A stretch of DNA of 42,016 bases. Source: a virus (taxonomy: Duplodnaviria; Heunggongvirae; Uroviricota; Caudoviricetes). Location of the stretch: the IMG/VR virus record IMGVR_UViG_2778261180_000002, positions 1 to 42,016 of that record; one strand, given 5' to 3'. Both the position numbers and the translations under genes were made by a program. The notes below the pieces were generated by a model that saw nothing but the letters and a program-made list of their open reading frames with translations, was not told the DNA's origin and searched no databases. Position 1 is the stretch's first letter. Each line of letters begins with the position of its first letter. Shown here piece by piece: positions 1 through 41,617 of this stretch.

Positions 1-475
<475 letters not shown>

Positions 476-1873: not shown

Positions 1874-2070
1874 TACTGGCTGCGACATTTTTGAATAAAA
1901 GCGTCGACATTTCGGCGCTCATAACGAACTACTTTTGCACTGAAACGAATTGGTGCCAGGATAGCCCGATGACGATGCTTAATATTCCACTCACATAGCG
2001 TTTTCTGTGTAATACCTAACTTTTGGCATACTTCATCCGGGGTGAGTAAATCGTCGGGTTTCTCGCTCAT
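1870..2070 (-). CDS. small HTH DNA-binding protein, excisionase-like
   Basis: 66-aa ORF. ATG 2068-2070 overlaps the stop of the upstream helicase gene (ATGA coupling). Helix-turn-helix-like segment LTPDEVCQKLGITQKTL. Position next to integrase. Confidence 0.5.
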   Translation of the reverse strand: MSEKPDDLLTPDEVCQKLGITQKTLCEWNIKHRHRAILAPIRFSAKVVRYERRNVDAFIQKCRSQY

Positions 2071-6743: not shown

Positions 6744-8225
6744 TTAATATGATAAATAATCATACAAGCATAAAAGTCGCCTGTATTGGGTATCAATTTT
6801 ATGCCCTGGTTTTGTTAAATAATCTCGTAGTTGTTTCAATGAAATAGTATCATTTAGTACGCAATACATAATCGTGTTAGCAACTTTATACTCTTTCGTT
6901 TCTTTTAGTATTTCATCAATAGACACAGCCTCACTCTTACATGTTTTAATTCGAGAAAGGTTACCAATGATTTTATCTAGCTGCCGTTTTCTGTATGTCT
7001 CGGTATTTTCTAGTTCAGGGCAGATAGAACTAAAAGCGTATATTGGAAAGTGTTCGCTATTAGCTATGGTTTGCTTATTCAGTAATGCGATAAGCTGAGA
7101 GTTTGCTTCGTCAACTATTTTAAAATAGTTCTGTATCATTTCAGATTTTGTTTGATAAACATATTGTACGGTTCTTTCTGAACCAACAGCAATGACCATT
7201 TCATCATTGCGAAGTTCATCTAAATTTTCTGTAATTTTAACCTTTATCTCACCACCACTTTTGATGGTACTCCAAACTTTTTGAACCTTTCTTATGTCCA
7301 TTGCGGATACTGGCAAAACTAGTCCAGAGATGGCATCATATACAGCTTTGTAATTGTTTGTTTTTATTTTGTTTATTCTTATGATAGACATGCCTTCTAT
7401 ATCTATGTCATGCTCCGTAATTTCAGTTGACATGCTGTCTTTTTCGTATTCAACCAAAAGAAAATTATCTTTTATCCTTTTTGCAAGTTCGGTATTTAAG
7501 TCAACGTATGAGAATATGGTTTTTAATAAGTACTTAATGTTTTTATCGCTAATACTATACCCTATAAATATGATAGGGTTGTGTATGAATATTGAGAGTA
7601 ATTGAGCGCGAATTAACTCATATTTATTGTCGAAGTTTGCGTAGTCTTCACCTGTGATAATTATGTTGTTAGGATCACTAACACAGCCATGTATTTTGTA
7701 AACTGAACCGTATGGGTTACTTAAAAGAATGTTGTTACCAATCAGTGGGTTAAATTCGAAGATATTCTCTACGAGTTGGTCGTAGTTTGTTGTAATGATG
7801 GAGCCTATGTTTTTTCTTGTTTTTATTAAGCTGTTTATTTCCTCCATCATTGACTCTTTTATCTTTAGGTCTTTAAGTATTGAAGTTAAATAAATTTTGA
7901 ATCGACTTAGTTTTTTTCCTTTTTTCATGTGCTCATAGAAAACATCATTGATGTCTTTGAACTTACCGTTACGATCTTCTGCCAGCTTTTTATTAAAAAT
8001 ATCTTCAAGTTTTGTAGCTAAGATATCATATCGATAGTCGTCACCTTCTAGGCTTTCAGCTTTCAAATCGTAGTAAAACTCAGCATTACCGGTTAGTTCC
8101 ATTGCGACACTCAAAAGAAGACCATCCCAGCTAAATGAGTTTTCTAGATACCGTAGGCTAAATCCTGTTCCAATGAATAGAACAGGGTGGTTTTTATAGT
8201 GATTTACAAACTCTTGGATTTCCAT
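6744..8225 (-). CDS. SIR2-like (SIR2_2 / ThsA-type) domain protein with unassigned C-terminal domain; candidate defence moron
   Basis: ORF open from GTG 8246; ATG 8225 (MEIQEF...) likely the real start. N-terminal half carries SIR2_2-type motifs VLFIGTGFS, IITTNYDQL, KIHGCVS...IITGEDY. C-terminal ~250 aa has no recognisable domain. Markedly AT-rich versus flanks; own downstream terminator. Confidence 0.65.
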   Translation of the reverse strand: MEIQEFVNHYKNHPVLFIGTGFSLRYLENSFSWDGLLLSVAMELTGNAEFYYDLKAESLEGDDYRYDILATKLEDIFNKKLAEDRNGKFKDINDVFYEHMKKGKKLSRFKIYLTSILKDLKIKESMMEEINSLIKTRKNIGSIITTNYDQLVENIFEFNPLIGNNILLSNPYGSVYKIHGCVSDPNNIIITGEDYANFDNKYELIRAQLLSIFIHNPIIFIGYSISDKNIKYLLKTIFSYVDLNTELAKRIKDNFLLVEYEKDSMSTEITEHDIDIEGMSIIRINKIKTNNYKAVYDAISGLVLPVSAMDIRKVQKVWSTIKSGGEIKVKITENLDELRNDEMVIAVGSERTVQYVYQTKSEMIQNYFKIVDEANSQLIALLNKQTIANSEHFPIYAFSSICPELENTETYRKRQLDKIIGNLSRIKTCKSEAVSIDEILKETKEYKVANTIMYCVLNDTISLKQLRDYLTKPGHKIDTQYRRLLCLYDYLSY

Positions 8226-8336
8226 ACCGATTCTCAAAGTTGACACGTAATACCTCTATAAAAACAAATAGCCGTAAAAATTCCAATAGCTTTTTGGATC
8301 TCGCCCGGCGTGTAACCGGGCGTCTATGAAGAAGGG

Positions 8337-26503: not shown

Positions 26504-27041
26504 CACCAGCACAGAGCGCGGATGGCTGATACCAACCAGTGGCGATCCGGATTATGACGAAGCGCTCGACAGGCTGTTAAGCCAGTGGATGCGTAACGTT
26601 TCCGGTCTGTCTGCCGGGATGGTTCGTCCGCGCTGGCAGAAAGAGCAGCCGCCACTGCTACCGGCTGAAACGAACTGGTGTGCGTTTGGGGTTATCGGAT
26701 GGTCAGGTGATGACAGTCCGGCATTCACCAGACAGACCGATGATGGCTCTCAGCTCTGGCGGCATGAAACGATTGAGTGTATGGCTTCGTTTTATGGACC
26801 GGCGGGGATGGTGTATGCGTCCCGGTTTCGTGACGGTATATCTGTACCGCAGAACAATGCAGCACTGAATGCGCTGGGGCTGTCTCTTGGCGATTACACA
26901 GGTCTGACTCCCTTCCCTGAACTTATTAATCAGCAATGGGTCCGCCGCTACGATATGACGGTGCGCCTGCGCCGGAAGGTTGTGCGCGAGTACGGTATTA
27001 AATCGCTGGTGGAAGCACCAGTTATCTTTTTCGGAGATTAA
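26478..27041 (+). CDS. hypothetical virion protein
   Basis: ORF frame open from 26433; ATG 26478 chosen (TTG 26493 possible). Confidence 0.4.
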   Translation: MGEFRLSNNTSTERGWLIPTSGDPDYDEALDRLLSQWMRNVSGLSAGMVRPRWQKEQPPLLPAETNWCAFGVIGWSGDDSPAFTRQTDDGSQLWRHETIECMASFYGPAGMVYASRFRDGISVPQNNAALNALGLSLGDYTGLTPFPELINQQWVRRYDMTVRLRRKVVREYGIKSLVEAPVIFFGD

Positions 27042-27044
27042 GCT

Positions 27045-28190
27045 ATGGCACAGGGCTTGCCTGTATCAAACGTTGTTAATGTTGATGTGATCATGTCGCC
27101 GCGTGCAGCATCAGGGCGAAATTTTGGTGCATTACTCATTCTCGGCCCGTCCACAATCATTCCGGTAAGTGAGCGCATTCGTCGTTATTCTGCCGCGGAA
27201 GATATTGGAAAAGATTTTGGCGTGGAATCACCAGAATATAAAGCTGCGCAGGTGTTTTTCTCACAATCACCGAAACCTCAGGAGGTTTTTGTTGGTCGTT
27301 GGGTGAAAACGAAGGGAGACAGCGAACAGGCCACGCCTGAGACGCTGGAGCAGGCTGTGAATGCCATGCTCGATTATACTTCATGGTATGGGCTGGGGAT
27401 TGCAGACGATGAAGATATTCCGGATGCAGACTGGCTGAAAGTGGCTGCGGTGATCGAATCCTCTTCTGTAAGCCGTATTCTGGCGATTACGACAAGCGAT
27501 GATAAATGCCTGCAGACTGCATCCAGCGATGATTTGGCATCAAAACTGAAAACCGCCGGATATTCACGCAGTTTTATTCAGTATTCATCGGGTAATAAAT
27601 ACGCTGCGTTATCTGCATTTGGCCGGGCATTCACGGTTAATTTCAATGGCAGTAATACCGCGATTACGCTCAAGTTTAAGCAGGAGCCGGGTGTCGGGTA
27701 TGAAACACTGACAGTCAGCCAGGCATCGGCACTTGATGCAAAAAACTGCAATGTATTCGTGTACTACCAGAATGATACGGCTATCCTCCAGCAGGGAGTG
27801 ATGGCTAACGGCGATTTCTTTGATGAACGCCACGGCCTGGACTGGTTACAGAATTATGTGCAGACCAACCTCTATAACCTGCTTTATACCAGCACCACGA
27901 AAGTTCCCCAGACTGAAGCCGGTATTACCCGACTGTTATCAAATGTTGAAAAATCACTGGATCAGGCCGTTCAGAATGGACTGATTGCTCCGGGCGTATG
28001 GAACGGGGGCGACCTTGGTCAGTTGTCATCAGGTGACACACTGCCCAAAGGTTATTACGTATACGCCCAGCCGCTGGATGAACAGGCACAATCAGAACGT
28101 GAAGCCCGTAAGGCTCCGGTGATTCAGGCTGCAATAAAACTTGCAGGCGCGGTTCATTACGCTGACGTACAGATTAACGTTGTTCGCTAA
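27045..28190 (+). CDS. tail sheath protein (putative)
   Basis: 381 aa directly upstream of a tube-sized ORF, chaperone and tape measure. Contractile tail implied by baseplate J/V/W genes downstream. Confidence 0.55.
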
Positions 28191-28200
28191 GGGGAAGTGA

Positions 28201-28641
28201 ATGTCTACCTATTCTTTTATGGATGTCACTGCGACGCTGACCGGCCCGACCGGTTCGATTGACCTCGGGTACGGTTCTGCAAGTTCTGAAGAGGGGATTG
28301 TGGTTGCGATGGGCGGTCCTAAAAACACCATGACCATCGGTGCTGATGGTGAAGTGATGCACAGCCTCCATGCAGATAAAAGCGGGACGATTACCGTTAA
28401 CCTTCTGAAGACATCACCGACAAATAAAAAATTGTCGCTGGCGTATAACGCACAGAGCCAGTCTTCTGCCACATGGGGGAATAACGTTATCGTGATCCGC
28501 AACAAGGTCAGCGGCGACATCATCACGGCACGCAGTGTTGCGTTCCAGAAACAACCGGATAACGCCAACGCTAAAACCGCTAATACGATGCCGTGGGTGT
28601 TTGACTGCGGCAAGATTGACCAGGTTCTCGGGGAGTTTTAA
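28201..28641 (+). CDS. tail tube protein (putative)
   Basis: 146 aa between sheath-like gene and chaperone. Confidence 0.55.
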   Translation: MSTYSFMDVTATLTGPTGSIDLGYGSASSEEGIVVAMGGPKNTMTIGADGEVMHSLHADKSGTITVNLLKTSPTNKKLSLAYNAQSQSSATWGNNVIVIRNKVSGDIITARSVAFQKQPDNANAKTANTMPWVFDCGKIDQVLGEF

Positions 28642-28644
28642 TGC

Positions 28645-29097
28645 ATGGAATTCGAAATTAAAGGCGTGAAATATCGCGTGGCAAAACTCAGCGTTTTTGA
28701 CCAGCTGAAAGTGACCCGCAAACTTCTGCCGGTACTGGCGGGAATGATGTCAGATTTCGGGAGCATTCGCTCCCGTTTGCCTGCTGACGGCAAAATCGAC
28801 ACCGTGAAATTCGAGCAGTTAAAACCGGTGTTTGAAACCATGCTCCCGCGTATCGCTGAGGAACTGTCTTCCCTGACCGAAGATGACACCGATGCGATTA
28901 TTCATCCCTGTCTTGCGGTGGTGTCGCGGCGTCATATGGATGGATGGGTGCCGGTATTTACCCAGGGCGAACTGATGTTTGATGATATTGACTTGCTGGT
29001 CATGCTTCATCTGGTGGCGCGGGTGGTCGCCGATTCGCTGGGAAATTTTTTGCTTACACCCCTTACCAGCACGACACAGAGCCTGCAACAGGGCTGA
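28645..29097 (+). CDS. tail assembly chaperone with -1 frameshift signature
   Basis: 150 aa. Canonical slippery heptamer G GGA AAT at 29040-29046; the -1 frame then stays open for 80 codons to TGA 29283-29285, just past the tape-measure start. Confidence 0.6.
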   Translation: MEFEIKGVKYRVAKLSVFDQLKVTRKLLPVLAGMMSDFGSIRSRLPADGKIDTVKFEQLKPVFETMLPRIAEELSSLTEDDTDAIIHPCLAVVSRRHMDGWVPVFTQGELMFDDIDLLVMLHLVARVVADSLGNFLLTPLTSTTQSLQQG

Positions 29098-29274
29098 CGT
29101 TTAACAGCCTGCCGGACGGGCTGTCCTACCTTCTCAATCCGGTTGACGCCGGGTTAATTCCCTATACAGCACTTAAAGATGGCTCTGTCGATTTGTATGA
29201 CATTGCTCTCTTGAATGACCATCTGGCGGTAAAAGCGGATAACCAGCGGCGCATTGAGAAATGGAGAGAGGATA

Positions 29275-31281
29275 ATGAACGCTGAAACTATTAAAGATTT
29301 CCTCGTCTCGCTTGGCTTCAGTGTGGATGATGCAGGAGCGAAAAAGTTCGGTTCTGTCCTCGCCGGTACAACTGCAAATGTCATCAAAATGGGGCTGGCT
29401 GTTGAAGGAGCTGCGCTGTCCGTGGTGGCCTTCACGGCTAAGATCGCCTCCGGCCTGGATAATCTTTACTGGGCGTCACAGCGCACCGGCGCGACGGTCC
29501 AGGGAATTCAGTCTATTGGCTATGCGGTTTCGCAGGTTGGCGGCAGTGTGGACGCTGCGCGATCTTCTCTGGAAAGCCTCTCCCGGTTTATTCGTAACAA
29601 TCCCGGAGCAGAAGGCTTTCTGAATCGCCTGGGCGTACAGACCCGTGATGCCAGCGGTAACATGCGTGACATGGCTGCTATCTTTACGGGCGTTGGACAG
29701 AAACTCAGCAGCATGCCGTATTACCGGGCTAACCAGTATGCGCAGATGCTGGGCATTGACGAAAATACCCTGATGGCTATGCGTCGCGGAGTGGGGCAGT
29801 TCAGCGCTCAGTATTCAGAAATGGTGAAAGCGATCGGATTTAATGCCGATCAGGCTGCCTTATCGTCAAACCGGTTTATGACCTCGCTGAAATCGCTCGG
29901 TGAAATGGCCGGGATGGCGCGGGACAAAATCGGATCGAATCTTGCGGACGGACTGGCGGGGCAGATTGATAACCTGCGCAAAAAGATAATTGAAAATTTT
30001 CCCAAAATTGAAGTCACCATCACAAAGGTCATAAAGGGGATCCTCTGGCTGGGTGAGATAGTCGGGCGGGTAGCATTTCGGATAGTCGATGGTGTCGGAG
30101 ATATCATCGAGTGGTGGGGGAAACTGGATGCCGAAACGAAAACCCTGATAGAGGTTATCGGCGGTCTGGTTGTCGCCATGCGGATACTTAACTCTACTTT
30201 CTGGATGTCACCTATAGGGCTGATTACCGGTCTGATCGTGGCTCTCGGTCTCTTGTGGGAAGACTACAAAACATGGAAAGAAGGCGGTAACAGTCTTATC
30301 GACTGGGAAAAATGGCAACCGGCAATAGATAAAGCGAAGGATGCGATCACCTGGCTTCGTGATCACCTTCTGGAACTAAAAGATGGTGTTGGCGGCTGGC
30401 AAAATGCACTGGAAATCCTCGGTACATTCATCGCGGGTGTCTGGGTATCCAAGGTTCTGGGGGCTTTCGGAAAAATATCAGGTTTACCGGTCCCACCCTG
30501 GCTTAAATTGTGGGCGCTTTACGCGGGCTATATTGTTAGTGACAGAGAAAATATTGCTGATAGCGCAAAATCTTCACTGAGGTATACGAAGCGAATTATC
30601 GGCGACACGCTGGCTGCTATTGGTATAAAAACAGATATCGGACGCAGGGATGTCAGTGAGGTCCGTGAATGGCCTGCGTGGATGGACTGGTTGCACGGGG
30701 GACCCGGTAAAGTTATCCGGCAGGGACAGAGTAACGGTGTAGTGCATGGCTCCAATGTCCAGCCCGACATCCCCGGCGGCGGCACTCTTGCTGATCGCAA
30801 CAATAACCCCGGGAACATTCGCCCGGTGAGCGGTAAAGGGTTCCGTTTTTTCGAATCAGCGCTTGAGGGCTGGGAGGCGATGAAAAACCAGCTCATGCGT
30901 TACTTTACCGGGAAAACAACCGGACGGGCATTACAGACTATTCAGGATATTGTCAGTACCTGGGCCCCGGCAGGTGATAACAACGATCCGAAAAAGTATG
31001 CACAGGATGTTGCGAAATGGATGGGAGTATCACCGAATGCAATATTGAATCTTACAGATCCCCGGACTATGGGAGCATTGATGCAGTCGATGGCGCGCAA
31101 AGAAGGTTATTCAAACTGGAACAGCCCGCTGGCGTATAAGGTCGCCGCTGGCAGCCTTAACCAGCAGACTGTTATAAATGTTCATGGAGTTAACAACCCT
31201 CAGGAGGCGGCTAATCTGATCGCTGACAAGCAGGGGGCTGTAAATGCCAGGGCGGTACAGCAATTGAAAGGACCTGCGTAA
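29275..31281 (+). CDS. tail tape measure protein
   Basis: About 668 aa, helix-rich with hydrophobic central segment. ATG 29275 preceded by GGAGAGAGG. Follows chaperone. Confidence 0.75.
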   Translation: MNAETIKDFLVSLGFSVDDAGAKKFGSVLAGTTANVIKMGLAVEGAALSVVAFTAKIASGLDNLYWASQRTGATVQGIQSIGYAVSQVGGSVDAARSSLESLSRFIRNNPGAEGFLNRLGVQTRDASGNMRDMAAIFTGVGQKLSSMPYYRANQYAQMLGIDENTLMAMRRGVGQFSAQYSEMVKAIGFNADQAALSSNRFMTSLKSLGEMAGMARDKIGSNLADGLAGQIDNLRKKIIENFPKIEVTITKVIKGILWLGEIVGRVAFRIVDGVGDIIEWWGKLDAETKTLIEVIGGLVVAMRILNSTFWMSPIGLITGLIVALGLLWEDYKTWKEGGNSLIDWEKWQPAIDKAKDAITWLRDHLLELKDGVGGWQNALEILGTFIAGVWVSKVLGAFGKISGLPVPPWLKLWALYAGYIVSDRENIADSAKSSLRYTKRIIGDTLAAIGIKTDIGRRDVSEVREWPAWMDWLHGGPGKVIRQGQSNGVVHGSNVQPDIPGGGTLADRNNNPGNIRPVSGKGFRFFESALEGWEAMKNQLMRYFTGKTTGRALQTIQDIVSTWAPAGDNNDPKKYAQDVAKWMGVSPNAILNLTDPRTMGALMQSMARKEGYSNWNSPLAYKVAAGSLNQQTVINVHGVNNPQEAANLIADKQGAVNARAVQQLKGPA

Positions 31282-31931
31282 TGGACTTTTTATCTGTTTT
31301 ACTGCAGCAGCGAACCCGCTCAATAGGAATCATTATTCCTGATGTGGTTATTACCGAAAAGCACACTGACGCCCTGGAAATTACGGAACATCCTGTTGAA
31401 CAGCCCACGAATGCTGGTGCCAGTGGTGAGGGCGCTGGTTATATATCAGAACACGCATTCAGGCGCCCTTCTGAGGTTGTGATGGAAACCGGTTTTTCCG
31501 GAGGCGGATCGCTGCTTGATTTTGCCAGTAACCTGACGGCTACCAGTTTACTGGGGCTGAGCCCGAAAGAACTGTATCAGGAACTGCTTAACCTGCAGCG
31601 GAATCGTATTCCTTTCGATGTGACAACCGGCAAGCGTATTTACAACAATATGTTGATAAAAACGCTGGAGGTCACGACCGATAAGAGTAGTGAAAATGTG
31701 CTTCTGGCGACGCTTACCCTCAGGGAAGTAATTATTACCTCCACGCAGTCAGTCAGGGTTGCCCCGAAAAACAATATGACCGAGGGAGTCGGAACGTCTG
31801 CTGTGCAGAATACAGGCACCAAAACAACCGTGTCACCGAATAATTCCATTCTGAAATCGCTGCCACAGATGGCGCAAGAAGGTATCTCCACTGTTGATGG
31901 GTATTTGAGCAATTTATTTCTGGGAAGATGA
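31281..31931 (+). CDS. tail/baseplate assembly protein (hypothetical)
   Basis: 216-aa ORF, TAATG overlap with tape measure. Confidence 0.45.
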   Translation: MDFLSVLLQQRTRSIGIIIPDVVITEKHTDALEITEHPVEQPTNAGASGEGAGYISEHAFRRPSEVVMETGFSGGGSLLDFASNLTATSLLGLSPKELYQELLNLQRNRIPFDVTTGKRIYNNMLIKTLEVTTDKSSENVLLATLTLREVIITSTQSVRVAPKNNMTEGVGTSAVQNTGTKTTVSPNNSILKSLPQMAQEGISTVDGYLSNLFLGR

Positions 31932-31934
31932 TTC

Positions 31935-32237
31935 ATGAAAGCCGTAGAAATCCCACTGGTTGCTGACAATCAGACTTTTGCCACCACAATTAACGGTTCG
32001 GTTTATCACCTGTCTGTCATCTGGCGAGGAGAGTACTGGGTTCTGGATCTTGCTGACAGCAATGGTTCCGCCATTATATCAGGTATACCGATGATTACGG
32101 GGGCTGACCTGCTGGCACAGTATCGATATATGGATCTGGGTTTTTCTCTGGTGGTGCTTTGCGACGTGGCAGGGCCGGAGAATCCGACGCAATTCGATCT
32201 TGGAACGCTCTCACACCTCTATGTTTTCACGGAGTAA
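31935..32237 (+). CDS. hypothetical tail protein
   Basis: 100-aa ORF in the tail operon. Confidence 0.45.
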   Translation: MKAVEIPLVADNQTFATTINGSVYHLSVIWRGEYWVLDLADSNGSAIISGIPMITGADLLAQYRYMDLGFSLVVLCDVAGPENPTQFDLGTLSHLYVFTE

Positions 32238-32239
32238 CA

Positions 32240-33271
32240 ATGTCGAAAAACTGGATGCGTCACTTTGAATTATTGCTTGTTGATGATAAGGGCGACGGGA
32301 TAAAAATTTCTGAGCTTAAAGTCACTTTCAATATTCAGAAAATGCCTGCGACCATATTTAATGGATTCGTTGGGAATTTTAAGGTTTATAACCTGTCCCC
32401 TACCACTCAGAACCGGATTATGCAGAAGGAGTTTTCGCGTATACAGGTTATTGCCGGATACAAGGGGCAACCGGATGCAGCAGGTAATTATCCTGATGAA
32501 AACGTTGGCATGATATTCAATGGAGATATCCGTTTTACTGTCACTGGTAAAGATAATGCCACAGACAGTTGGATCATATTGCAGTGTATTGACAGCTGGG
32601 AAGGCCACCTGAACGCAAGTGTGAAAACCACAGTGGCAGCTGGCTGGAAGTACAGCGATCTTTTCAGTCTGGGTATGAAATCATTCGAACCATATGGCAT
32701 CGAATCCGGCGCAGTTCCTGACATGCCTGAAACGGTATTTCCCCGAGGCCGCGTTGTTTATCAAAACACATCAAGGTTGATGAATCATATCGCAGGGCAG
32801 TGTAAAGCTAACTGGTGGTATGAAAATAATCTGGTAAATATTGTTCCTGAAGATAAATATATTGGTGTTGCTACGGTGTTGAATGCTAACACCGGGCTTA
32901 TCGGTATGCCACAGCAGACGATGGGAGCTGGCGTAAATGTCAGATGTCTGATTAATCCAAATATTAAGCTGGGTGGACTTATTCGTCTGGATCAGGCATC
33001 CGTATACCGTGCCTCTTTGAGTAATGACCAGGTAGCGAAATCGCCAGCACGACTGGATGAGTCTGAAAGCGACGGTAATCTCTACGTTAACGGTCTGCCA
33101 GGCATGTCACAGCCTGCCAGTATTAATACTGACGGTGATTACATTGTGGGCAGCATTGATTATACTGGCGACACCCGAGGGCAGGCGTGGTATATGGACC
33201 TGCTTTGCCTGGCTAAAGGTGGCAAAGAATTGCTTAACTCGAAAGGGATTGATGCGGCGAAATACACATGA
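32240..33271 (+). CDS. baseplate hub-like protein (putative)
   Basis: ATG 32240 with GGAG upstream; the track's extension from 32159 overlaps the upstream gene. Position before the spike/baseplate genes. Confidence 0.5.
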   Translation: MSKNWMRHFELLLVDDKGDGIKISELKVTFNIQKMPATIFNGFVGNFKVYNLSPTTQNRIMQKEFSRIQVIAGYKGQPDAAGNYPDENVGMIFNGDIRFTVTGKDNATDSWIILQCIDSWEGHLNASVKTTVAAGWKYSDLFSLGMKSFEPYGIESGAVPDMPETVFPRGRVVYQNTSRLMNHIAGQCKANWWYENNLVNIVPEDKYIGVATVLNANTGLIGMPQQTMGAGVNVRCLINPNIKLGGLIRLDQASVYRASLSNDQVAKSPARLDESESDGNLYVNGLPGMSQPASINTDGDYIVGSIDYTGDTRGQAWYMDLLCLAKGGKELLNSKGIDAAKYT

Positions 33272-33603
33272 AAAGACCATTGTTGACAGTTTTACTTGTC
33301 TGTATCTCCTTCATTTCCTTTGCTGATACCGGTTGCGGACCATTTACGATCAACTGGAAAGCGCAAGACGGACTTGCAAGGATTAATGGACAGAAACCGG
33401 AGACACAGAAAATCATCTTTCTCAAACAGGAAGGTGATTATGACAATGTGAACATCCAATGGATGATTCCGGGTAATGGGCGTTGGTTAGGGATGGATTT
33501 TGTGGCCAGAAATGGCAAGCCGATCCTCAATGTTGAAGTTATCCGCAAAAATATGGACGACCCTCGGGAGTTCTGGACGTATGATTGCCGGAAGGTGAAG
33601 TGA
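33268..33603 (+). CDS. small secreted protein with cleavable signal peptide
   Basis: 111 aa. N-terminal MKRPLLTVLLVCISFISFA signal-like segment. ATGA overlap with the preceding baseplate gene. Confidence 0.5.
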   Translation: MKRPLLTVLLVCISFISFADTGCGPFTINWKAQDGLARINGQKPETQKIIFLKQEGDYDNVNIQWMIPGNGRWLGMDFVARNGKPILNVEVIRKNMDDPREFWTYDCRKVK

Positions 33604-33759
33604 ATTACATTGGCGTCCAGCTGCTGCAGAACAGCATGGACGCGCCGAAAATCATCGGCTCTTTCCCGTGTAAGAAAGTCGCTGGGGGACCAGTGTATAT
33701 CCTGCCAGGTTGATGATCTTAAAGTGGTGAGTTAGGATTTCTTGAAAGGGAGATTTAAC

Positions 33760-34512
33760 ATGTCATCAGCCTCACCGAAACTCATCACAGACCAGCTATT
33801 CGAAAGGTTATTCCCATCGCTTGAGCAGGGAGAGAATCTCTTGGGTGAGTTTGAAGTTTTTAGCATCATTCGTGATGCTAAAAAAATACCCGTAGAAGAT
33901 GAATCTCTTACTATTCAGGGCATGGGATGGATTGTTCTTGGGGATGTTGAGAAAGGTTCAGAATTATGTGAACGAGCCTTATCAATTAACTCATCGGAGT
34001 CAGCTATTTGGATAAATTATGCTGTAGCTCTTGGACAAAAAGGCCTGTACACCAAACAGCGGAACATTTTAAAGCGTGGAGCCGACATGCTTCTTCCCTC
34101 ATTGATGATGTTTGATTTTATCACATCCTCTTTTTGGGCTGATCATGAAGAGATGAAGCGAGTTAAAAAATTGTTTAAGAGCTTGGGTGATATTGAACTA
34201 AGCGATAAACAAAAAGGTGATTATATGGGTGCGGAGGTGATATACGACACGTTAGAAAAACTTCCTATATCTGAGAGGGGTAAATTGTCTGGCATGGCCG
34301 CTTTGGCAATGCAGATATTAGAAAGTAATGGTGTTAGAGCCAGAAATTGTGGGCAGTATGTATCCCCGGATGGAATGCTTTCATTTAATTATGACGTAAC
34401 GGGTGCTACACCAGATTTAATCGTAAAATTAAATGATGAGCTGGCCTCAAAAATAGTTGAGAATGACTTGTTTGATGCCGATTCTATAGTGCTATTTACT
34501 CCAGGGGGGTAA
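33760..34512 (+). CDS. hypothetical protein, first gene of AT-rich two-gene cargo module
   Basis: ATG 33760 with AAGGGAG 8 nt upstream (track start is a TTG at 33742). 250 aa, no recognisable domain. Visibly AT-rich relative to flanking tail genes. Confidence 0.6.
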   Translation: MSSASPKLITDQLFERLFPSLEQGENLLGEFEVFSIIRDAKKIPVEDESLTIQGMGWIVLGDVEKGSELCERALSINSSESAIWINYAVALGQKGLYTKQRNILKRGADMLLPSLMMFDFITSSFWADHEEMKRVKKLFKSLGDIELSDKQKGDYMGAEVIYDTLEKLPISERGKLSGMAALAMQILESNGVRARNCGQYVSPDGMLSFNYDVTGATPDLIVKLNDELASKIVENDLFDADSIVLFTPGG

Positions 34513-34513
34513 T

Positions 34514-34924
34514 GTGTCAATTGAAATATATGAATTCATAAAAATTGCCAAGAAAAATATTTCTGACGACTCTGGTGAGATTGGAGTAAGGACTGCGGTT
34601 AGTCGTGGTTATTATGCCATGTACCATGCTTGTTTAAGCCTTAGCGGTCCGGTACCAAGACAACATCCACTTAATGGCTCTTTTAAAGGCGGGACTCACT
34701 CACGCCTTGCCCAATACATGACTGAATGTTCAAAATTGATATCCTCTACAAATGATTTGGAAGTTCGCAAGCTAGGCGTAAAATTGAAGATGTATCATAA
34801 ATATCGCTGTGATGCTGATTATGAACTAAACAAAACTATTGATGGAAAGTATGCGGAAATTGTAATTGCAGAGGCTGAAAATATTGCTGAGAGTGTGCGA
34901 TTAGTTAGATCATCTGCTGCTTAG
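34514..34924 (+). CDS. HEPN-like domain protein, second gene of cargo module
   Basis: 136 aa from GTG 34514, 1 nt after the upstream TAA, with GGGGGG upstream. Motifs SRGYYAMYHACLSL and YRCDADYE resemble the classic HEPN (PF05168-type) pattern. Confidence 0.55.
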   Translation: MSIEIYEFIKIAKKNISDDSGEIGVRTAVSRGYYAMYHACLSLSGPVPRQHPLNGSFKGGTHSRLAQYMTECSKLISSTNDLEVRKLGVKLKMYHKYRCDADYELNKTIDGKYAEIVIAEAENIAESVRLVRSSAA

Positions 34925-34941
34925 TATCATTTAAATGAATG

Positions 34942-34966
34942 AACCCGCCATCCGGCGGGTTTTTTG
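34942..34966 (+). terminator. rho-independent terminator ending the cargo module
   Basis: Perfect 8-bp stem AACCCGCC/GGCGGGTT, loop ATCC, then TTTTTT. Followed directly by the ribosome-binding site of the next baseplate gene. Confidence 0.8.
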
Positions 34967-34984
34967 CTTTCTGGAGACATATGA

Positions 34985-35737
34985 ATGCCCGTTTCTTTAA
35001 GCGCTCAACTTGGTAGCAAAGAACAGGCCGATGTAAGACTTGCTGGCTCTGTCATGTCGGCGCTGCGTGTTTCTATGCCAGGCATCGTCCAGTCATTTGA
35101 TCCGGACACGGTAACAGTGGTTGTTCAACCTGCGATTAAAGGCTATGAGCCGGACTCAAATGGAATCAACCAGTCGACGACATTACCCTTGCTGGTGGAT
35201 GTGCCAGTGGTATTCCCGCGCGGCGGAGGCTGTACGTTGACTTTTCCGGTAAAAGCCGGTGATGAGTGTTTGGTGATTTTTGCCGATCGTTGTATTGATT
35301 TCTGGTGGCAGAGTGGCGGGATACAGGAGCCTGTTGATGACAGAATGCATGATTTATCGGATGCGTTTTGTATTGTCGGTCCCCAGTCGCAGGCTAGGAA
35401 GATTAGCGGTATTAATACCAGTGCCACACAGTTGCGTAGTGACGACGGCAGTACCTATTTTGAGCTTAATCCTGATACCAGGAAAATTAAAATTGTCGCT
35501 CCGGGGGGTCTTGATGTGGTTGCCCCCCTGGCTGATTTTTCTGAGAAAGTAACCATTCATGGCCTGTTAACCTGGATGGGTGGCATGGTGGGGTCTGTTG
35601 TTTCTGGTGTGGCTTCAAAAATCACTGGTGCTGTTGAGTTTTTGGGTAGCGTGAAGGCTAACGGCAAGCCAATCGATGATACGCACACTCATGGCGGTGT
35701 TCAGCGCGGTGGAAGCAATACCGACGGAGTAAACTGA
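34985..35737 (+). CDS. baseplate spike / assembly protein V-like
   Basis: 250 aa. GGAGA 7 nt upstream of ATG 34985. N-terminal region resembles Mu gp45/P2 gpV-type proteins as recalled. Confidence 0.65.
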   Translation: MPVSLSAQLGSKEQADVRLAGSVMSALRVSMPGIVQSFDPDTVTVVVQPAIKGYEPDSNGINQSTTLPLLVDVPVVFPRGGGCTLTFPVKAGDECLVIFADRCIDFWWQSGGIQEPVDDRMHDLSDAFCIVGPQSQARKISGINTSATQLRSDDGSTYFELNPDTRKIKIVAPGGLDVVAPLADFSEKVTIHGLLTWMGGMVGSVVSGVASKITGAVEFLGSVKANGKPIDDTHTHGGVQRGGSNTDGVN

Positions 35738-36090
35738 TGCGATACAGACGTGAAGACGCCGATGGCGATTACACCTTTGGCAGCGGTGATGACACCTGGC
35801 TGATTAACTCACCGGAGGCCGTGGCGCAGGCGGTAAAAACGCGATTCGAATTGTGGTATGGGCAATGGTTTCTCGACACCACCGAAGGGACTCCGTGGAT
35901 CCAGTCCGTGCTCGGTAAGCAGAAGCCGGAAACCTACAACCTAGCGATCCGTAAGCGCATCCTCGAAACGCGGGGTGTTAAATCAATCCTCTCTTTCAAT
36001 ACGACGGTGGATACCACGACCCGACGTGTCATGTTTTCCGCTGAAGTCGACACTCTTTATGGAATAACTACTGTTACATCGGAGGCGTAA
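35737..36090 (+). CDS. baseplate protein (gpW / Mu gp46-like)
   Basis: 117 aa, TGATG overlap with upstream gene; size and position typical. Confidence 0.5.
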   Translation: MRYRREDADGDYTFGSGDDTWLINSPEAVAQAVKTRFELWYGQWFLDTTEGTPWIQSVLGKQKPETYNLAIRKRILETRGVKSILSFNTTVDTTTRRVMFSAEVDTLYGITTVTSEA

Positions 36091-37289
36091 TGGCTCTGAA
36101 CCTTGATTCTCTCGGTTTATCTGCAAAGGTAACCGCGGAGGGGATCAGTGCGCCTGATTATCAGACGATACTCAGCACCCTGATTAGCTATTTTCAGCAG
36201 ATTTATGGCAGAGATGCCTACCTCGAACCGGACAGCAAAGACGGCCAGATGGTGGCTCTGATGGCGCTGGCGATTCATGATGCCAATAATACTGCGATAA
36301 CTGTCTACAACTGTTTTTCACCGGCAACCGGCTATGGGGCTGCGCTGACCAGTAACGTGAAAATAAATGGTATTTCACGTAAAGGCGCGACGAATTCTAC
36401 GGTTGATTTGCTTCTTACAGGAACTGCCGGAACAACCATCATTAATGGCAGCGTGAAAGATGGTAATAATGTGATATGGCGTTTGCCTGCTTCAGTGGTG
36501 GTTGGCGTGGATGGTACAGTGATGGTGACCGCAAAATGTTCCGTCAGTGGTGCAGTGGCGGCGCTGGCTGGAACTATCACTGAAATTAATACGCCAACCC
36601 GTGGCTGGGTTTCGGTAACCAATCCTGCTGCAGCTACTGTAGGCACTCCAGCAGAAACTGATGCGGAGTTACGTATCCGCCAGTCACAAAGTGTTGCGTT
36701 GCCATCAATAACCCCATTTGAAGCACTGGATGGTGCTGTTTCTAATGTTACCGGTGTAACCCGCCACAAACTCTATGAAAACGATACTGGTTCGGAGGAC
36801 GGTAACGGGTTACCGCCACACTCTGTTGCTGTAATTGTGGATGGCGGTGATGTGACGGATATTGCTCAGGCTATCAGAGGGAATAAAGGCCAGGGTACAG
36901 CCACTCACGGTACAACATCCGTTACGGTTCCGGATAAATACGGCAATCCCCATGTAATCAAATTCTCGCGTTCCAGTGATGTGCCTGTTTATGCCCGGAT
37001 TAAATTAAAAGTTTTTACGGGTTATACCTCACAGATAGGGCAGCAGATCCAGCAGGCTATTTCCGACTATATCAATAGTCTGACGATCGGTGATTCGGTC
37101 CTTTTAAGTCGCATTTACTCACCGGCGAATCTTGGCGTGGTGAGTGGCGGGAATGCACGCTATTACGATATTCAGGAACTGACGATTGGGAAATCCCCGG
37201 GGGCTTTGTCGTCATCAAACATTGATATCAGATACAACGAATCTGCGTCCTGTACCCCGGAAAATATCGTTATAACGGTGGAGTCATGA
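36090..37289 (+). CDS. baseplate J-like protein
   Basis: 399 aa; size and gene order V-W-J-I-fibre. Confidence 0.65.
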   Translation: MALNLDSLGLSAKVTAEGISAPDYQTILSTLISYFQQIYGRDAYLEPDSKDGQMVALMALAIHDANNTAITVYNCFSPATGYGAALTSNVKINGISRKGATNSTVDLLLTGTAGTTIINGSVKDGNNVIWRLPASVVVGVDGTVMVTAKCSVSGAVAALAGTITEINTPTRGWVSVTNPAAATVGTPAETDAELRIRQSQSVALPSITPFEALDGAVSNVTGVTRHKLYENDTGSEDGNGLPPHSVAVIVDGGDVTDIAQAIRGNKGQGTATHGTTSVTVPDKYGNPHVIKFSRSSDVPVYARIKLKVFTGYTSQIGQQIQQAISDYINSLTIGDSVLLSRIYSPANLGVVSGGNARYYDIQELTIGKSPGALSSSNIDIRYNESASCTPENIVITVES

Positions 37290-37966
37290 GCAAATACACC
37301 GAACTAATCACGAACTACCACGCCACCAAACCTAAATTTCTTGCGCATGTTGATCTGATGACCCGGCCACTTATTGATGTTGCGGCTGCCACCAGAGGGC
37401 TGATTACTGCATTTGATATTGACTCTGCGGTTGGTGTGCAACTTGACATTCTGGGATTGTGGATCGGACGTAGTCGTGTTGTCAGCCAGCCTATCTCAGG
37501 TGTCTATTTCAGCTGGGATACCGACGGGCTTGGATATGATCAAGGGGTATGGCAGGGACCATACGATCCTGATTCCGGATACATGTATCTCAGCGATGAA
37601 ACTTATCGTGTCATTCTTAAAGCGAAGATTGCGATTAATAACTGGGACGGACGGAATGATTCGCTTCCGGCAATCCTTGACGCTGCAACAGCAGGATCCG
37701 GACTGCGAATGCAGATTGTCGATAACCAGGACATGACGATATCGGTCTGGGTCTTTCCTGATACTGATATTTCAGATGTATCGCGTGAGTTAATTGCTGC
37801 AATTAAACAGGGATATCTCACAGTAAAAGCCGCCGGGGTGTGGGCGGGTGGAATTGAAACACCTTCGGTGGAAACCCCATCGGAAGGTTCAAAATTTTTT
37901 GGTTTTGATATGGATAACGAATTTATCAGTGGTTTTGATCTAGGGGCATGGGGAGTATTACTCTGA
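37286..37966 (+). CDS. baseplate/tail protein I-like (Mu gp48-like)
   Basis: 226 aa between J-like and tail-fibre genes. Confidence 0.55.
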
Positions 37967-38676
37967 TGGCAAAAAATGACTTTAAAGCATTCGCAACGGG
38001 TAAAAATGCCAATGTTATGTCGCAGGAGGAATGGGAAGCGTTGCCTGCGCTTTTGTCTGGATTTACAGCAGGGAAAGCCTCCAGTGCGCAAGTCAATAAG
38101 GTTATTCGGCAGGCCAGCTTTATTGCTGCAGCTCTGGCCCAGTTTGTAAGCGATAAAACGCAACGGGATGTGCTTGATAATGGTGATCTGCCCGGTTTTG
38201 TTGAATTGCTGGGATCGGGGTTTGCTGTTGAATACCTGAGCCGCAAGAATCCGTTTGGTGATATCAAATCGGACGGCACGGTGAAAACGGCTCTCGAAAA
38301 CCTTGGTTTGGGAGAAGCGGCAAAACGGGATGTGGGAACAGGGGAAAATCAGATACCGGATATGGCTTCTTTTGCCAGTGGTGATGGATGGATGAAATTA
38401 CCCAACGGTAAAATCCTGCAATATGGTCGAGGTGCGGTTACGCCGACATTATCGACGCAAACAATGAGAATTACATTCAGCATCCCTTTCCCCAAAAAAG
38501 CGGACTGCGCCATGCTTACTCATTCTGGTGATGGCGGTGCGCCTTTAGGCGCTGGACGGGGATTCGTGATGACTGCAGAAGGTCCAACACTAACCGGTTT
38601 TAATTCCGCTTACAGAACTGCATCAACCAGCTCCACAGTATCGATGAATTACAGTTGGTGGGCTGTTGGTGAGTAA
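37966..38676 (+). CDS. tail fibre protein (constant N-terminus plus currently expressed variable C-terminus)
   Basis: ATG 37966 (TGATG overlap). Contains the left inversion site; shares the peptide LGLGE at the crossover with the inverted alternative cassette. Confidence 0.75.
38291..38316. other. left inversion crossover site (hix/gix-like) inside tail-fibre gene
   Basis: CTCTCGAAAACC-TT-GGTTTGGGAGAA matches the recalled hix consensus TTCTTGAAAACC-AA-GGTTTTTGATAA at about 19 of 24 half-site positions. 15-bp core TTGGTTTGGGAGAAG (38303-38317) is a perfect inverted repeat of 40202-40216. Confidence 0.7.
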
Positions 38677-38696
38677 TTTTATTCAGGGTGATTTAT

Positions 38697-39140
38697 ATGA
38701 ACGAATATGTTTATAGTGCAAGGCATAATGCTTTTTTCCCTGTGGATATGATTGATAAATATAAATCAGAGGGATGGGATTTATCAGATGCAAAGGAAGT
38801 AAATCAAAATATTATCAGTGAGTTTATGGCTGAACCGCCACAAGGAAAAATCCGTATTGCCGGAGATGATGGGCTGCCTGCGTGGGCAGATATTCCTCCA
38901 CCCACGCATGAAGAGCTTATTGAAATTACTGAATCAGAAAGACAGCTACTAATTAACCAGGCCAACGAATACATGAACAGTAAGCAATGGCCCGGTAAAG
39001 CCGCTATTGGTCGTCTGAAAGGTGAGGAACTGGCGCAATATAATTTGTGGCTGGATTATCTGGATGCACTGGAGCTGGTTGATACCTCCAGTGCGCCAGA
39101 TATTGAATGGCCTACGCCTCCGGCAGTTCAGGCCAGATGA
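38697..39140 (+). CDS. tail fibre assembly protein (Tfa)
   Basis: ATG 38697 (GTG 38688 alternative). C-terminal region typical of Tfa chaperones; follows the tail-fibre gene. Confidence 0.7.
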   Translation: MNEYVYSARHNAFFPVDMIDKYKSEGWDLSDAKEVNQNIISEFMAEPPQGKIRIAGDDGLPAWADIPPPTHEELIEITESERQLLINQANEYMNSKQWPGKAAIGRLKGEELAQYNLWLDYLDALELVDTSSAPDIEWPTPPAVQAR

Positions 39141-39714
39141 CATCCGGCGCGGTGCTGGTATCTGTTGCCGCCACCGCGTCAATGTAATCCAGCACAGCGT
39201 TAAGTCTGGTTGTTTCTGCCTGTGTCAGTTTACGTCCGGCCTGCAATTTCAGTTGAATCAGACTGATGGAAGCCATTGCAGCATCAATCAGTGACTGGCG
39301 CTGTGCTTCTGCTGCTTCTACTGCGGCGTTATGCTGTGCCTCAGTATCTGTCACCCATTTTTCACCATCCCATTTATCGTATGGCGTTAACGGGGCGATA
39401 GTGGTTGTATTTTCAGGGTAATCACCCGGAGCTGTGATTTCTTTTGATTCTCCCGTTTCGGTGTTATAGACAACTTCACCGCGATGGTCTGGCACATATT
39501 CCCATGAGTTAAAATCTACAGATCGGCAGATTGCATAACCAGCTTTGTATGTGCCAGGGGCATCTAAACAGGAATATGCAGGGATACCGACACCAACGGC
39601 AAGATATTCAGTTGATGTGGAAATATATTCCCGTGTTTCGCCATCATAGTTATAGACGGTAATATTCCCCGCCTTTGTAGCAATAAACTCGCTATTTAAT
39701 ACAGCGTTATCCAT
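39112..39714 (-). CDS. alternative tail fibre assembly protein, inverted orientation
   Basis: 200 aa on minus strand. C-terminal motif (LNAVLDYIDAVAATDTSTAPDVIWPELP) parallels the plus-strand Tfa (LWLDYLDALELVDTSSAPDIEWPTPP). Confidence 0.7.
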   Translation of the reverse strand: MDNAVLNSEFIATKAGNITVYNYDGETREYISTSTEYLAVGVGIPAYSCLDAPGTYKAGYAICRSVDFNSWEYVPDHRGEVVYNTETGESKEITAPGDYPENTTTIAPLTPYDKWDGEKWVTDTEAQHNAAVEAAEAQRQSLIDAAMASISLIQLKLQAGRKLTQAETTRLNAVLDYIDAVAATDTSTAPDVIWPELPEA

Positions 39715-40256
39715 TATGCAGCCCTCACGATATAGTTAAATGCAATATTCCGTGGACGGGTTTCATTTATCCCATATGCTGTTGTTCTCTGATTCCCGAC
39801 AAAATATCCATTTGGATTAGAAGATACAGAATAATCATCAAAATCAAGTGGGCTATCAGCACCCGGCGTCAGGCTTGCAATATATCCTCTTCCCATAACT
39901 TCTGATGCTGGTATTTCTTTTGTACGATAATCACTAACTCTGAAGAGCTGCCCTTGGTGGGTGTGTGATTCCACTCCTCCATTCTGAAGACTTAGCAAGG
40001 CACGTACAGCATCAATACCACGCCCGTCATCCCAGCCACGAATAAACTCACCACGTAAATCAGGCAATTTATTTGTCGGATAAGCCTTTGCCAGTTCCGG
40101 GTATTCTTCAGCAGAAAAAGCGGCACCATTGCATTTCAGCCAGCCTGTTGGCGGAGTGGCTGAAGGCCACGGAACAGGCACCCCAACCGGTAATGCAGAG
40201 CCTTCTCCCAAACCAACGTTTAAGAAAATGCAGAGATTACGGCTAACTGGCATCAT
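39714..40256 (-). CDS. alternative tail-fibre variable C-terminal cassette (silent in this orientation)
   Basis: Minus-strand ORF whose N-terminal part ([13 protein letters not shown]) matches the crossover peptide of the plus-strand fibre (NLGLGEAAK). It would fuse in frame to the constant region after inversion. Confidence 0.65.
40203..40228. other. right inversion crossover site (hix/gix-like)
   Basis: Reverse complement reads TTTTCTTAAACG-TT-GGTTTGGGAGAA, sharing the 15-bp core with the left site in inverted orientation. Confidence 0.7.
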
Positions 40257-40283: not shown

Positions 40284-40547
40284 ATGCTTATTGGCTATGT
40301 CCGCGTATCAACAAATGACCAGAATACAGAATTGCAGCGTAACGCGCTGGAGTGCGCAGGATGTGAACTGATTTTTGAAGATAAAATCAGCGGAACGAAA
40401 TCAGCCAGACCGGGATTGAAAAAAACTGCTCAGAACGCTATCAGAAGGAGATACGCTGGTTGTCTGGAAGCTGGACAGACTGGGGCGCAGTGTGCGGCAT
40501 CTTGTCGTGCTGGTGGAGGAGTTGCGCGAACGAGGTGTTAATTTTAG
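40284..40547 (+). pseudogene. pin: Pin/Gin/Hin-family serine DNA invertase, frameshifted and 3'-truncated
   Basis: N-terminus [22 protein letters not shown]...[20 protein letters not shown] matches Pin-type invertases as recalled. An A7 run at 40419-40425 shifts the frame; the shifted frame continues [40 protein letters not shown]. Similarity ends near 40547 where AT-rich DNA begins; about 60 percent of the gene is missing. Confidence 0.75.
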
Positions 40548-40603
40548 TAGTTATGTTATTACAGGTGGGGGATTTCTCCCCCTTATGCAGCTTTTCTCGT
40601 TAA

Positions 40604-41449
40604 CTATTGGCGAAGTGGCCATATTTTTCTGTTTTTTAAAAAACTATCTTCAACTATATAACTGCAACAATGTTCACTAAGGCCATAAAAACTAATTATT
40701 CCATATTTATGAGAAGCTATATCAGACAGTTCTGCTAATACTGTGGCAAGCCAACGAGCGATGCTAAGAGAATAGAATCTTCCCCACTTTTGAACAATGG
40801 TATTTTGTCCAGTACGGATGGAGGCTGATATAAGGTCTTGCATAATGTTGGTACTTTCATTCATATACATGACCGTTGTATACGGTGAAAGAGTGGCATT
40901 GATAAACCTAGCATTTTCTTCAACACGTCTTTGTTCAACTGTATAATAATAATGTTTTTCAAGGATACTCTCGGCTACTTCTCCCCACCATTTATTAATA
41001 GGTTCATTATTGGTTAAATTGGGGCTGCTTAATGAGGAGAAATTTGCGTAACGTCCCCGTCGGGCATCAGCAAAGGAATCTAAACATTCAAGTATTTTGT
41101 AGGTAATTTTATGTGTAGGACGTGAATATCTCAGAGATAGTTGCATTTTTTTAGAAATACTATCAACCTCGTTGGTTAATTCAATGAGCTTGTGTCCAAA
41201 TTTTCTTACAATATTCTCGTCAGGCATTTTTCCTTTGTGTTCAATGGCATAGTGTGCAACAAGTATTAGTTTAGCAAGTCTCTCAAAACCTACAGAAAGC
41301 CCAAAAAATGCTGTGTAATATTCACCTATTTTGTCTGCATAATTGGCTTTACCTATGGCTGTTGCCCCAGAACCAATGAGCTGTGTTACTAAAGATGCTT
41401 CTCGGCCCAGAGCGTGCCATGCTGGAATATCCCAGGGATTTTTATTCAC
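40604..41449 (-). CDS. hypothetical protein in AT-rich right-end cargo (candidate defence gene)
   Basis: 281-aa ORF from GTG 41449 with AAGGA-like site upstream. AT-rich. No recognised domain; possible Rx5H segment (RYSRPTH) but unverified. Confidence 0.55.
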   Translation of the reverse strand: MNKNPWDIPAWHALGREASLVTQLIGSGATAIGKANYADKIGEYYTAFFGLSVGFERLAKLILVAHYAIEHKGKMPDENIVRKFGHKLIELTNEVDSISKKMQLSLRYSRPTHKITYKILECLDSFADARRGRYANFSSLSSPNLTNNEPINKWWGEVAESILEKHYYYTVEQRRVEENARFINATLSPYTTVMYMNESTNIMQDLISASIRTGQNTIVQKWGRFYSLSIARWLATVLAELSDIASHKYGIISFYGLSEHCCSYIVEDSFLKNRKIWPLRQ

Positions 41450-41576: not shown

Positions 41577-41617
41577 ACTAATTAATATATTGTGAGTCTG
41601 ACAATATATTAATTAGT
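41577..41617. repeat. perfect 17-bp inverted repeat with 7-bp spacer
   Basis: ACTAATTAATATATTGT-GAGTCTG-ACAATATATTAATTAGT, in the 300-bp gap between two minus-strand ORFs. Operator-like. Confidence 0.7.

Follow-up and report, generated by a model that had tools for sequence, protein, structure and literature searches.

A Pin-type invertible tail-fibre segment beside a truncated pin gene in a SEN34-like prophage, and its likely inversion in trans

The stretch of DNA analysed here, called the window below, is the whole 42,016-nt IMG/VR virus record IMGVR_UViG_2778261180_000002, and it comprises approximately one complete prophage. Near its right end lies a tail-fibre locus (Table 1) with a constant fibre N-terminus, two oppositely oriented cassettes that each encode a fibre C-terminus and a Tfa chaperone, two crossover sites in inverted orientation, and the remnant of pin, a serine invertase gene of the Din family. 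The remnant is truncated, and the same truncation is found in many E. coli prophages; in three pairs of these the segment between the crossover sites is exactly reverse-complemented, which we consider likely to be the work of invertases supplied by other elements.

Table 1. Coordinates of the fibre locus and of further features in the window
Feature	Position	Strand	Remarks
Integrase	470-1873		
Tail-fibre gene, whole	37966-38676	+	Gp53-like_C domain at C-terminus
Constant N-terminal fibre part	37966-38302	+	~112 codons, outside the invertible segment; from open reading frame and translation
pixL, left crossover site	38291-38316		26 bp, central dinucleotide TT at 38303-38304
Variable fibre C-terminus A, joined to constant part	38305-38676	+	Currently expressed; Pfam PF21882, E=4.8e-12; phrog_4890
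Tfa chaperone, cassette A	38697-39140	+	Pfam Caudo_TAP, E=1.9e-31
TfaE-like chaperone, cassette B	39112-39714	-	Pfam Caudo_TAP, E=1.7e-32; annotated tfaE in relatives
Variable fibre C-terminus B, not joined to constant part	39714-40216	-	Pfam Collar, E=6.5e-16; phrog_523/3100
pixR, right crossover site	40203-40228		26 bp, central dinucleotide AA at 40215-40216
Short leader of unjoined C-terminus	40217-40256	-	14 residues, own ATG at 40256; open reading frame 39714-40256
pin remnant	40284-40551	+	Codons 1-89 of a serine invertase of ~184 aa; +1 frameshift in A-run 40419-40425
Candidate Fis-bound recombinational enhancer	40329-40391		Two G-N13-C 15-mers, 40329-40343 and 40377-40391, 48 bp apart
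281-aa gene replacing 3' half of pin	40604-41449	-	Predicted HEPN-like fold

The fibre gene begins at 37966, the point at which relatives also have their annotated fibre start, and residues 1-125 of its product match PHROG tail-fibre families. An initial annotation of the window had placed a fibre C-terminus and Tfa on the plus strand, and an alternative Tfa and C-terminus on the minus strand, and the open reading frames, Pfam domains and PHROGs all agree with this; the two cassettes are intact, as are their chaperones. Both cassettes read the peptide GLGE across the crossover site, and when positions 38303-40216 were reverse-complemented in silico, an open fibre frame of 279 aa was obtained that fuses the constant N-terminus to the collar C-terminus, as expected from the earlier claim that inversion would keep the frame. 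The locus therefore has the S/S'-U/U' type of arrangement known from Mu, with the constant N-terminus outside, two convergent sets of C-terminus and Tfa inside, and an in-frame join. The 3' ends of the convergent Tfa genes share 29 nt (39112-39140), an overlap also annotated in relatives and in prophage e14 of E. coli K-12.

The unjoined C-terminus has a short leader of its own at 40217-40256, whose position is homologous to that of the e14 stfE leader when compared with the K-12 stfE pseudogene and with the inverted product. By analogy, this leader would head the other C-terminus after inversion, similar to the StfE2 chimera of e14, which has been reported to block adsorption of T2 (PMC12529663).

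The arms of the crossover region, 38298-38317 and 40202-40221, form a 20-nt inverted repeat with one mismatch, and the 15 nt at 38303-38317 and 40202-40216 are perfect. With up to two mismatches allowed, the 20-mer occurs at just two places in the 42 kb and in none of 100 shuffles, and the Din-type core pattern TTCNNNNAAACCAASGTTT detects the same two sites and no others in the window. Both sites are 26 bp long and partly palindromic, lie in inverted orientation, follow the dix consensus of the Din family and share a central dinucleotide. The reverse complement of 38291-38316, TTCTCCCAAACC AA GGTTTTCGAGAG, equals the published pixL in 26/26 positions, while 40203-40228, TTCTCCCAAACC AA CGTTTAAGAAAA, matches the published pixR in 25/26 (PMC3241671, Table 3). 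The pixL of the window is likewise identical to the e14 site in K-12, and it is kept in all of the 11 E. coli loci examined (L001-L011). Hence the perfect 15-bp repeat and the 26-bp hix/gix-like sites described at the outset are both real, and the sites can be named more precisely: their sequence identifies them as the Pin (pix) sites belonging to the P segment of e14. Their TT and AA cores stay compatible after inversion. As the window has only two such sites, it represents a simple two-site system, and a multi-site Min-like system is ruled out.

The locus is thus a known kind of system placed in a new prophage backbone. The P segment of e14, with its invertase PinE, has the same crossover sites and the same layout of a fibre N-terminus, two convergent cassettes of C-terminus and Tfa, and then pin; its TfaE and StfE-type C-terminus are homologous to those of the window, and the first 89 codons of Pin show 84-86% nucleotide identity. 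However, the window is not e14 itself. The e14 backbone is defective and carries ymfQ (DUF2313), an icd integration site and mcrA next to pin, whereas the window is a complete 42-kb SEN34-like prophage with a DUF2612 baseplate gene, baseplate J, full sets of replication and structural genes, a different cassette A and a HEPN-like gene after its truncated pin, and its relatives are integrated next to yfhH. The G segment of Mu with Gin, like the C segment of P1 with Cin and Min of p15B, belongs to the same Din family with 26-bp sites and a central AA or GA. In Mu as in the window, fibre C-termini are swapped together with chaperones on inversion, and the gene for the invertase immediately adjoins the segment; in Mu, the 5' coding part of gin contains Fis sites. 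The site sequences and the core are different (gix has GA) and Gin is intact. Min of p15B is a multi-segment system, in contrast to the two sites found here.

Residues 1-47 of the open reading frame at 40284 are 94% identical to PinE, and at codon 47 the frame shifts, the A-run at 40419-40425 being A7 in the window and A6 in 13/13 other copies examined. Alignment with intact pinE genes shows that the similarity to pin stops after 40551 (codon 89) and is followed by unrelated DNA and then by the 281-aa gene; the Pfam Resolvase match of the remnant covers only profile positions 2-58 of 145. The earlier description of the invertase as frameshifted and truncated is consequently correct, and no intact serine invertase of ~185-195 aa with catalytic domain, helix E and helix-turn-helix domain adjoins the segment. 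Both lost parts, helix E for oligomerisation and the DNA-binding domain, are required for the assembly of dimers and tetramers and for binding to the sites.

The truncation junction is common to 43 complete E. coli genomes, recovered by searching with the pin remnant together with the 281-aa gene, and its exact sequence is also present in four IMG/VR contigs; the species-representative genomes scanned gave no match to it. Because the junction is shared by these 43 genomes and four contigs and all copies examined have A6, the comparison indicates that the truncation is old and ancestral to a widespread lineage, and that the +1 frameshift is private to this window and secondary to the truncation. 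The extra A may be genuine, as a secondary mutation, or may reflect an error in sequencing the homopolymer. In most relatives the remnant frame stays open for 104 or 131 codons, the catalytic Ser10 region included, and the C-terminal extension of this frame is unrelated sequence whose length varies by sublineage. RefSeq labels the remnant an incomplete recombinase in dozens of genomes.

The remnant is also mosaic among the 11 loci. Two allele groups are ~82% identical over nt 1-190 and 92-94% identical over nt 191-268, one allele is 96-98% identical to K-12 pinE over the 5' 190 nt, and the DNA downstream of the remnant is ~99% identical in all copies. Such a mosaic 5' part implies that the remnant has recombined with other P modules and must therefore have shared a cell with them; the pattern of identities indicates that the P module has been exchanged by homologous recombination with other prophages. 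In PEC411 (L007) we observed a further pin allele that extends right up to the truncation junction. In 14EC029 (NZ_CP024141.1), similarity to the window sets in at query position 284, the pin ATG, which may mean that pixR is absent or replaced along with the segment; in CAU16175 (NZ_CP047378.1) it sets in only within the 281-aa gene region. These two loci may represent further decay stages of the truncated-pin locus.

Among the 43 truncated-pin genomes, 33 match the window from precisely 40202 on, where the repeat has its edge. By annotation, the cassette beside the pin remnant is collar-type, as in the window, in 13 of the 43, and gp53-like in at least 23; neither class of orientation is rare. 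Our first orientation queries, made of chimeric right junctions in the observed and the in-silico inverted form, mostly retrieved loci with an intact pin and were kept only as a positive control, and they were replaced by a query anchored on the 281-aa gene. That control comprises near-clonal O157 isolates with intact pinE, among which both orientations occur at one and the same chromosomal position.

Three pairs of relatives with the same truncated pin carry both orientations in otherwise identical DNA. Between A4 and MS20658, 1860 bp are exactly reverse-complemented, with 0 mismatches in 3155 nt of the left flank and 16 in 5283 nt of the right flank; all 16 fall in host genes from yfhH on, and none in the prophage part. 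Between 22AR0747 and WP3-W18-ESBL-08, the same is true of 1824 bp, with no mismatch in either flank (0/3191 nt left, 0/6231 nt right). The third pair, 97-3250 and 8D, differs by the exact reverse complement of 1613 bp (left flank 2/3402 nt, right flank 1/6231 nt, the single mismatch on the right being near the host end of the locus). All three reverse complements span the entire segment between the 2-bp cores, the segments themselves are 100% identical, and the perfect repeat measures 15 bp; the mismatches in prophage flanks number at most three in ~9.6 kb for any pair. A perfect repeat of just 15 bp points to site-specific over homologous recombination. Since the three inversions are independent, exact and bounded by pix sites, and all occur with a dead pin, the flipping must postdate the truncation as far as can be deduced from these sequences, that is, the segment has flipped in relatives after pin was truncated. 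The initial annotation had left two options, a segment that is locked or one that depends on a trans-acting invertase; the three exact inversion pairs speak against permanent locking and favour the latter.

Wild-type Din invertases require a Fis-bound enhancer in cis, which in the Hin system is situated ~100 bp from a hix site, and in Mu the Fis sites are reported to lie within the gin coding region. In the window, a pair of 15-mers with the G-N13-C pattern precedes both pin lesions at a distance of ~120 bp from pixR, and a like pair occurs at the same positions in Mu gin. A strict scan for Fis pairs at 48 bp gave no pair in the K-12-type pin alleles. By analogy, 40329-40391 fits a candidate enhancer that survived the truncation.

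Taken together, we regard as likely an explanation in which the window carries an orphan Pin-type P segment: with no helper in the cell it does not move, and Din-family invertases encoded by co-resident elements flip it in trans. The P segment, a member of the Din family, closes the tail operon of the SEN34-like prophage. A serine invertase bound at pixL and pixR would cleave both sites at their central 2 bp and turn the 1.9-kb segment around, which would exchange the C-terminal receptor-binding domain and the chaperone associated with the constant N-terminus and so change the host range. In an ancestor, the HEPN-like cargo gene replaced the 3' half of pin, including the oligomerisation helix and the DNA-binding domain, and the frameshift would have come later. 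The orphan switch would then stay put in cells that have no compatible invertase. Flipping in trans would be due to a Din-family invertase of another element, such as a PinE-like enzyme of another prophage, a Gin/Cin-like one or possibly PinQ or PinR, and the retained 5' part of pin probably provides the Fis enhancer in cis. Classical experiments reportedly showed complementation among Gin, Cin, Pin and Hin. Moreover, PinQ of prophage Qin, expressed from a plasmid, inverts the e14 P segment at the repeat TTGGTTTGGGAGAAG (PMC12529663), which is the same repeat as in the window, so that the recombinase of one prophage is able to invert the segment of another. The two cases differ in that the e14 segment is accompanied by an intact PinE and its inversion by PinQ was obtained with the plasmid-expressed enzyme, whereas the window is without a cis enzyme and is known from its sequence.

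Several observations weigh against this explanation. By tblastn, no other serine recombinase was found in the 42-kb window. We surveyed the 44 chromosomes with the 281-aa gene, of which 43 also have the pin remnant, for possible helpers by blastn with chimeric anchor-plus-gene queries; this census covers chromosomes at blastn sensitivity, with plasmid content checked for MS20658 alone, and its pinE/gin-type query would detect Mu gin. A second pinE/gin-type 3' half was absent in 30/44 chromosomes, and 13/44 had neither this nor a pinQ-type gene. The 13 include A4, MS20658, 8D and WP3-W18-ESBL-08, and both orientations are represented among them; the only plasmid of MS20658 has no serine recombinase according to its annotation and to tblastn. 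With 13 of 44 chromosomes lacking a detected helper, it is evident that a helper is not always present today. In the ST38-like clade, a candidate helper is present in all three genomes of the minority orientation and in 11/20 of the majority, a difference that is suggestive and yet not significant (one-sided p ~0.2, calculated by hand). A pinE deletion in K-12 leaves the P segment locked in culture despite chromosomal pinQ and pinR (PMC12529663), which means that flipping in trans must be rare or conditional. The enhancer assignment, too, is tentative and leans on motif spacing and analogy. The objection from missing helpers is softened by A4 and MS20658, whose prophage portions compared (~7 kb) are identical while the host flanks differ: the phage has moved between hosts recently, and its orientation may have been set in an earlier host. 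The mosaic pin remnant, with the co-residence that it implies, softens this objection as well.

An alternative is that the segment has been a locked fossil since the truncation of pin, and that the differences in orientation were imported by homologous exchange with other P modules or are older than the truncation. Modules have been exchanged, as the mosaic cassettes and 5' region of the remnant show, the K-12 pinE deletion was locked in culture (PMC12529663), and many carriers are without a detectable helper. We nevertheless hold this to be very improbable, because the orientations in three sublineages differ solely by an exact reverse complement between the pix cores, import would demand a donor of identical sequence and opposite orientation three times, and the single shared junction argues that the truncation preceded the split of the sublineages. 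The absence of a detectable invertase in genomes of both orientations would also be accounted for if the short inverted repeats recombined on rare occasions by a RecA-dependent or template-switch route, with no site-specific recombinase involved, and the breakpoints can indeed be mapped only to within the 15-bp identical stretch. However, at least three independent events are seen among 43 genomes despite a repeat of 15 bp, and the repeat is exactly the functional Pin site, so that inversion of this kind seems quite improbable. Efficient RecA recombination in E. coli usually needs ~20-30 bp, and 15 bp falls below this.

The truncated Pin fragment might itself still be active and flip its own segment, given that the frame of 104 or 131 codons kept in most relatives includes the catalytic Ser10 region. 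Nonetheless, the fragment has neither helix E nor a DNA-binding domain, it ends in a C-terminal extension of unrelated sequence that differs in length between sublineages, and the copy in the window is also frameshifted at codon 47; the chance that it is functional appears negligible. A further set of ideas, which we find unlikely, is that the helper-dependent switch is being kept and is not decaying, with pin codons 1-89 persisting as a Fis enhancer and the host range being set by the invertases of others, or that an unrecognised recombinase flips the segment where no Din- or PinQ-type gene is found; the unjoined cassette, with its own leader ATG, might also be expressed from the prophage and act on the host surface, as has been reported of StfE2 of e14.

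If helper invertases act in trans as proposed, a host-range switch would have outlived its own enzyme, and a trait of the phage would now be conditional on co-resident mobile elements. Loci that annotation pipelines call dead over a pseudogene recombinase may accordingly be miscalled, and the assemblies of near-identical strains can legitimately differ at this locus. What is known of the mechanism of Din-family inversion is unchanged, and the point of interest is a modest one: an orphan switch that seems to be still flipped in nature.

The window is a complete SEN34-like temperate myovirus prophage. Besides the integrase, it carries an SNF2 helicase, a family A polymerase, a CI-like repressor and a VapE-type primase, together with head, sheath, tape-measure and baseplate genes. 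When its tail region (27000-38300) was used as query, ~60% aligned at 97% identity with vB_EcoM-611R5 and 606R2, two E. coli prophage records, and Salmonella phage SEN34 is a distant relative. The same element adjoins yfhH-yfhb-tadA-mltF in complete E. coli genomes, and a version with intact pinE was found at another integration site; none of the complete E. coli genomes of the collection matches the window in full. The truncated-pin prophages at yfhH-tadA of E. coli (for example A4, MS20658 and FDAARGOS_144, as well as vB_EcoM-611R5 and 606R2) are the same prophage with the same junction and 281-aa gene and are 97-99.9% identical to the window outside the cassettes, but they differ from it in the gp53-like cassette A and lack the extra A of its pin remnant. 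For the 281-aa protein, a structure prediction from the single sequence was of no use (predicted local distance difference test score 39), and an alignment-based model was used.

Some other features of the prophage were noted. A protein of 500 aa with a SIR2_2 domain (6744-8246, minus strand, phrog_2695) is encoded in the early/replication region, and SIR2-like domains are known from several defence systems. Two small genes of 256 aa (phrog_37103) and 136 aa (phrog_5176), neither family having an assigned function, are located on the plus strand at 33742-34924, between the tail and spike genes, where relatives have DUF2335 or DUF4282 genes; by this comparison the interval resembles a slot for variable cargo. 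Towards the right prophage end, an AT-rich stretch contains a 20-nt inverted repeat with a 1-nt spacer (41577-41617; ACTAATTAATATATTGTGAG / CTGACAATATATTAATTAGT), which could be an operator or an att-related site. The gene just upstream of the fibre gene belongs to DUF2612, a family that is enriched beside predicted programmed inversions (PMC9881135).

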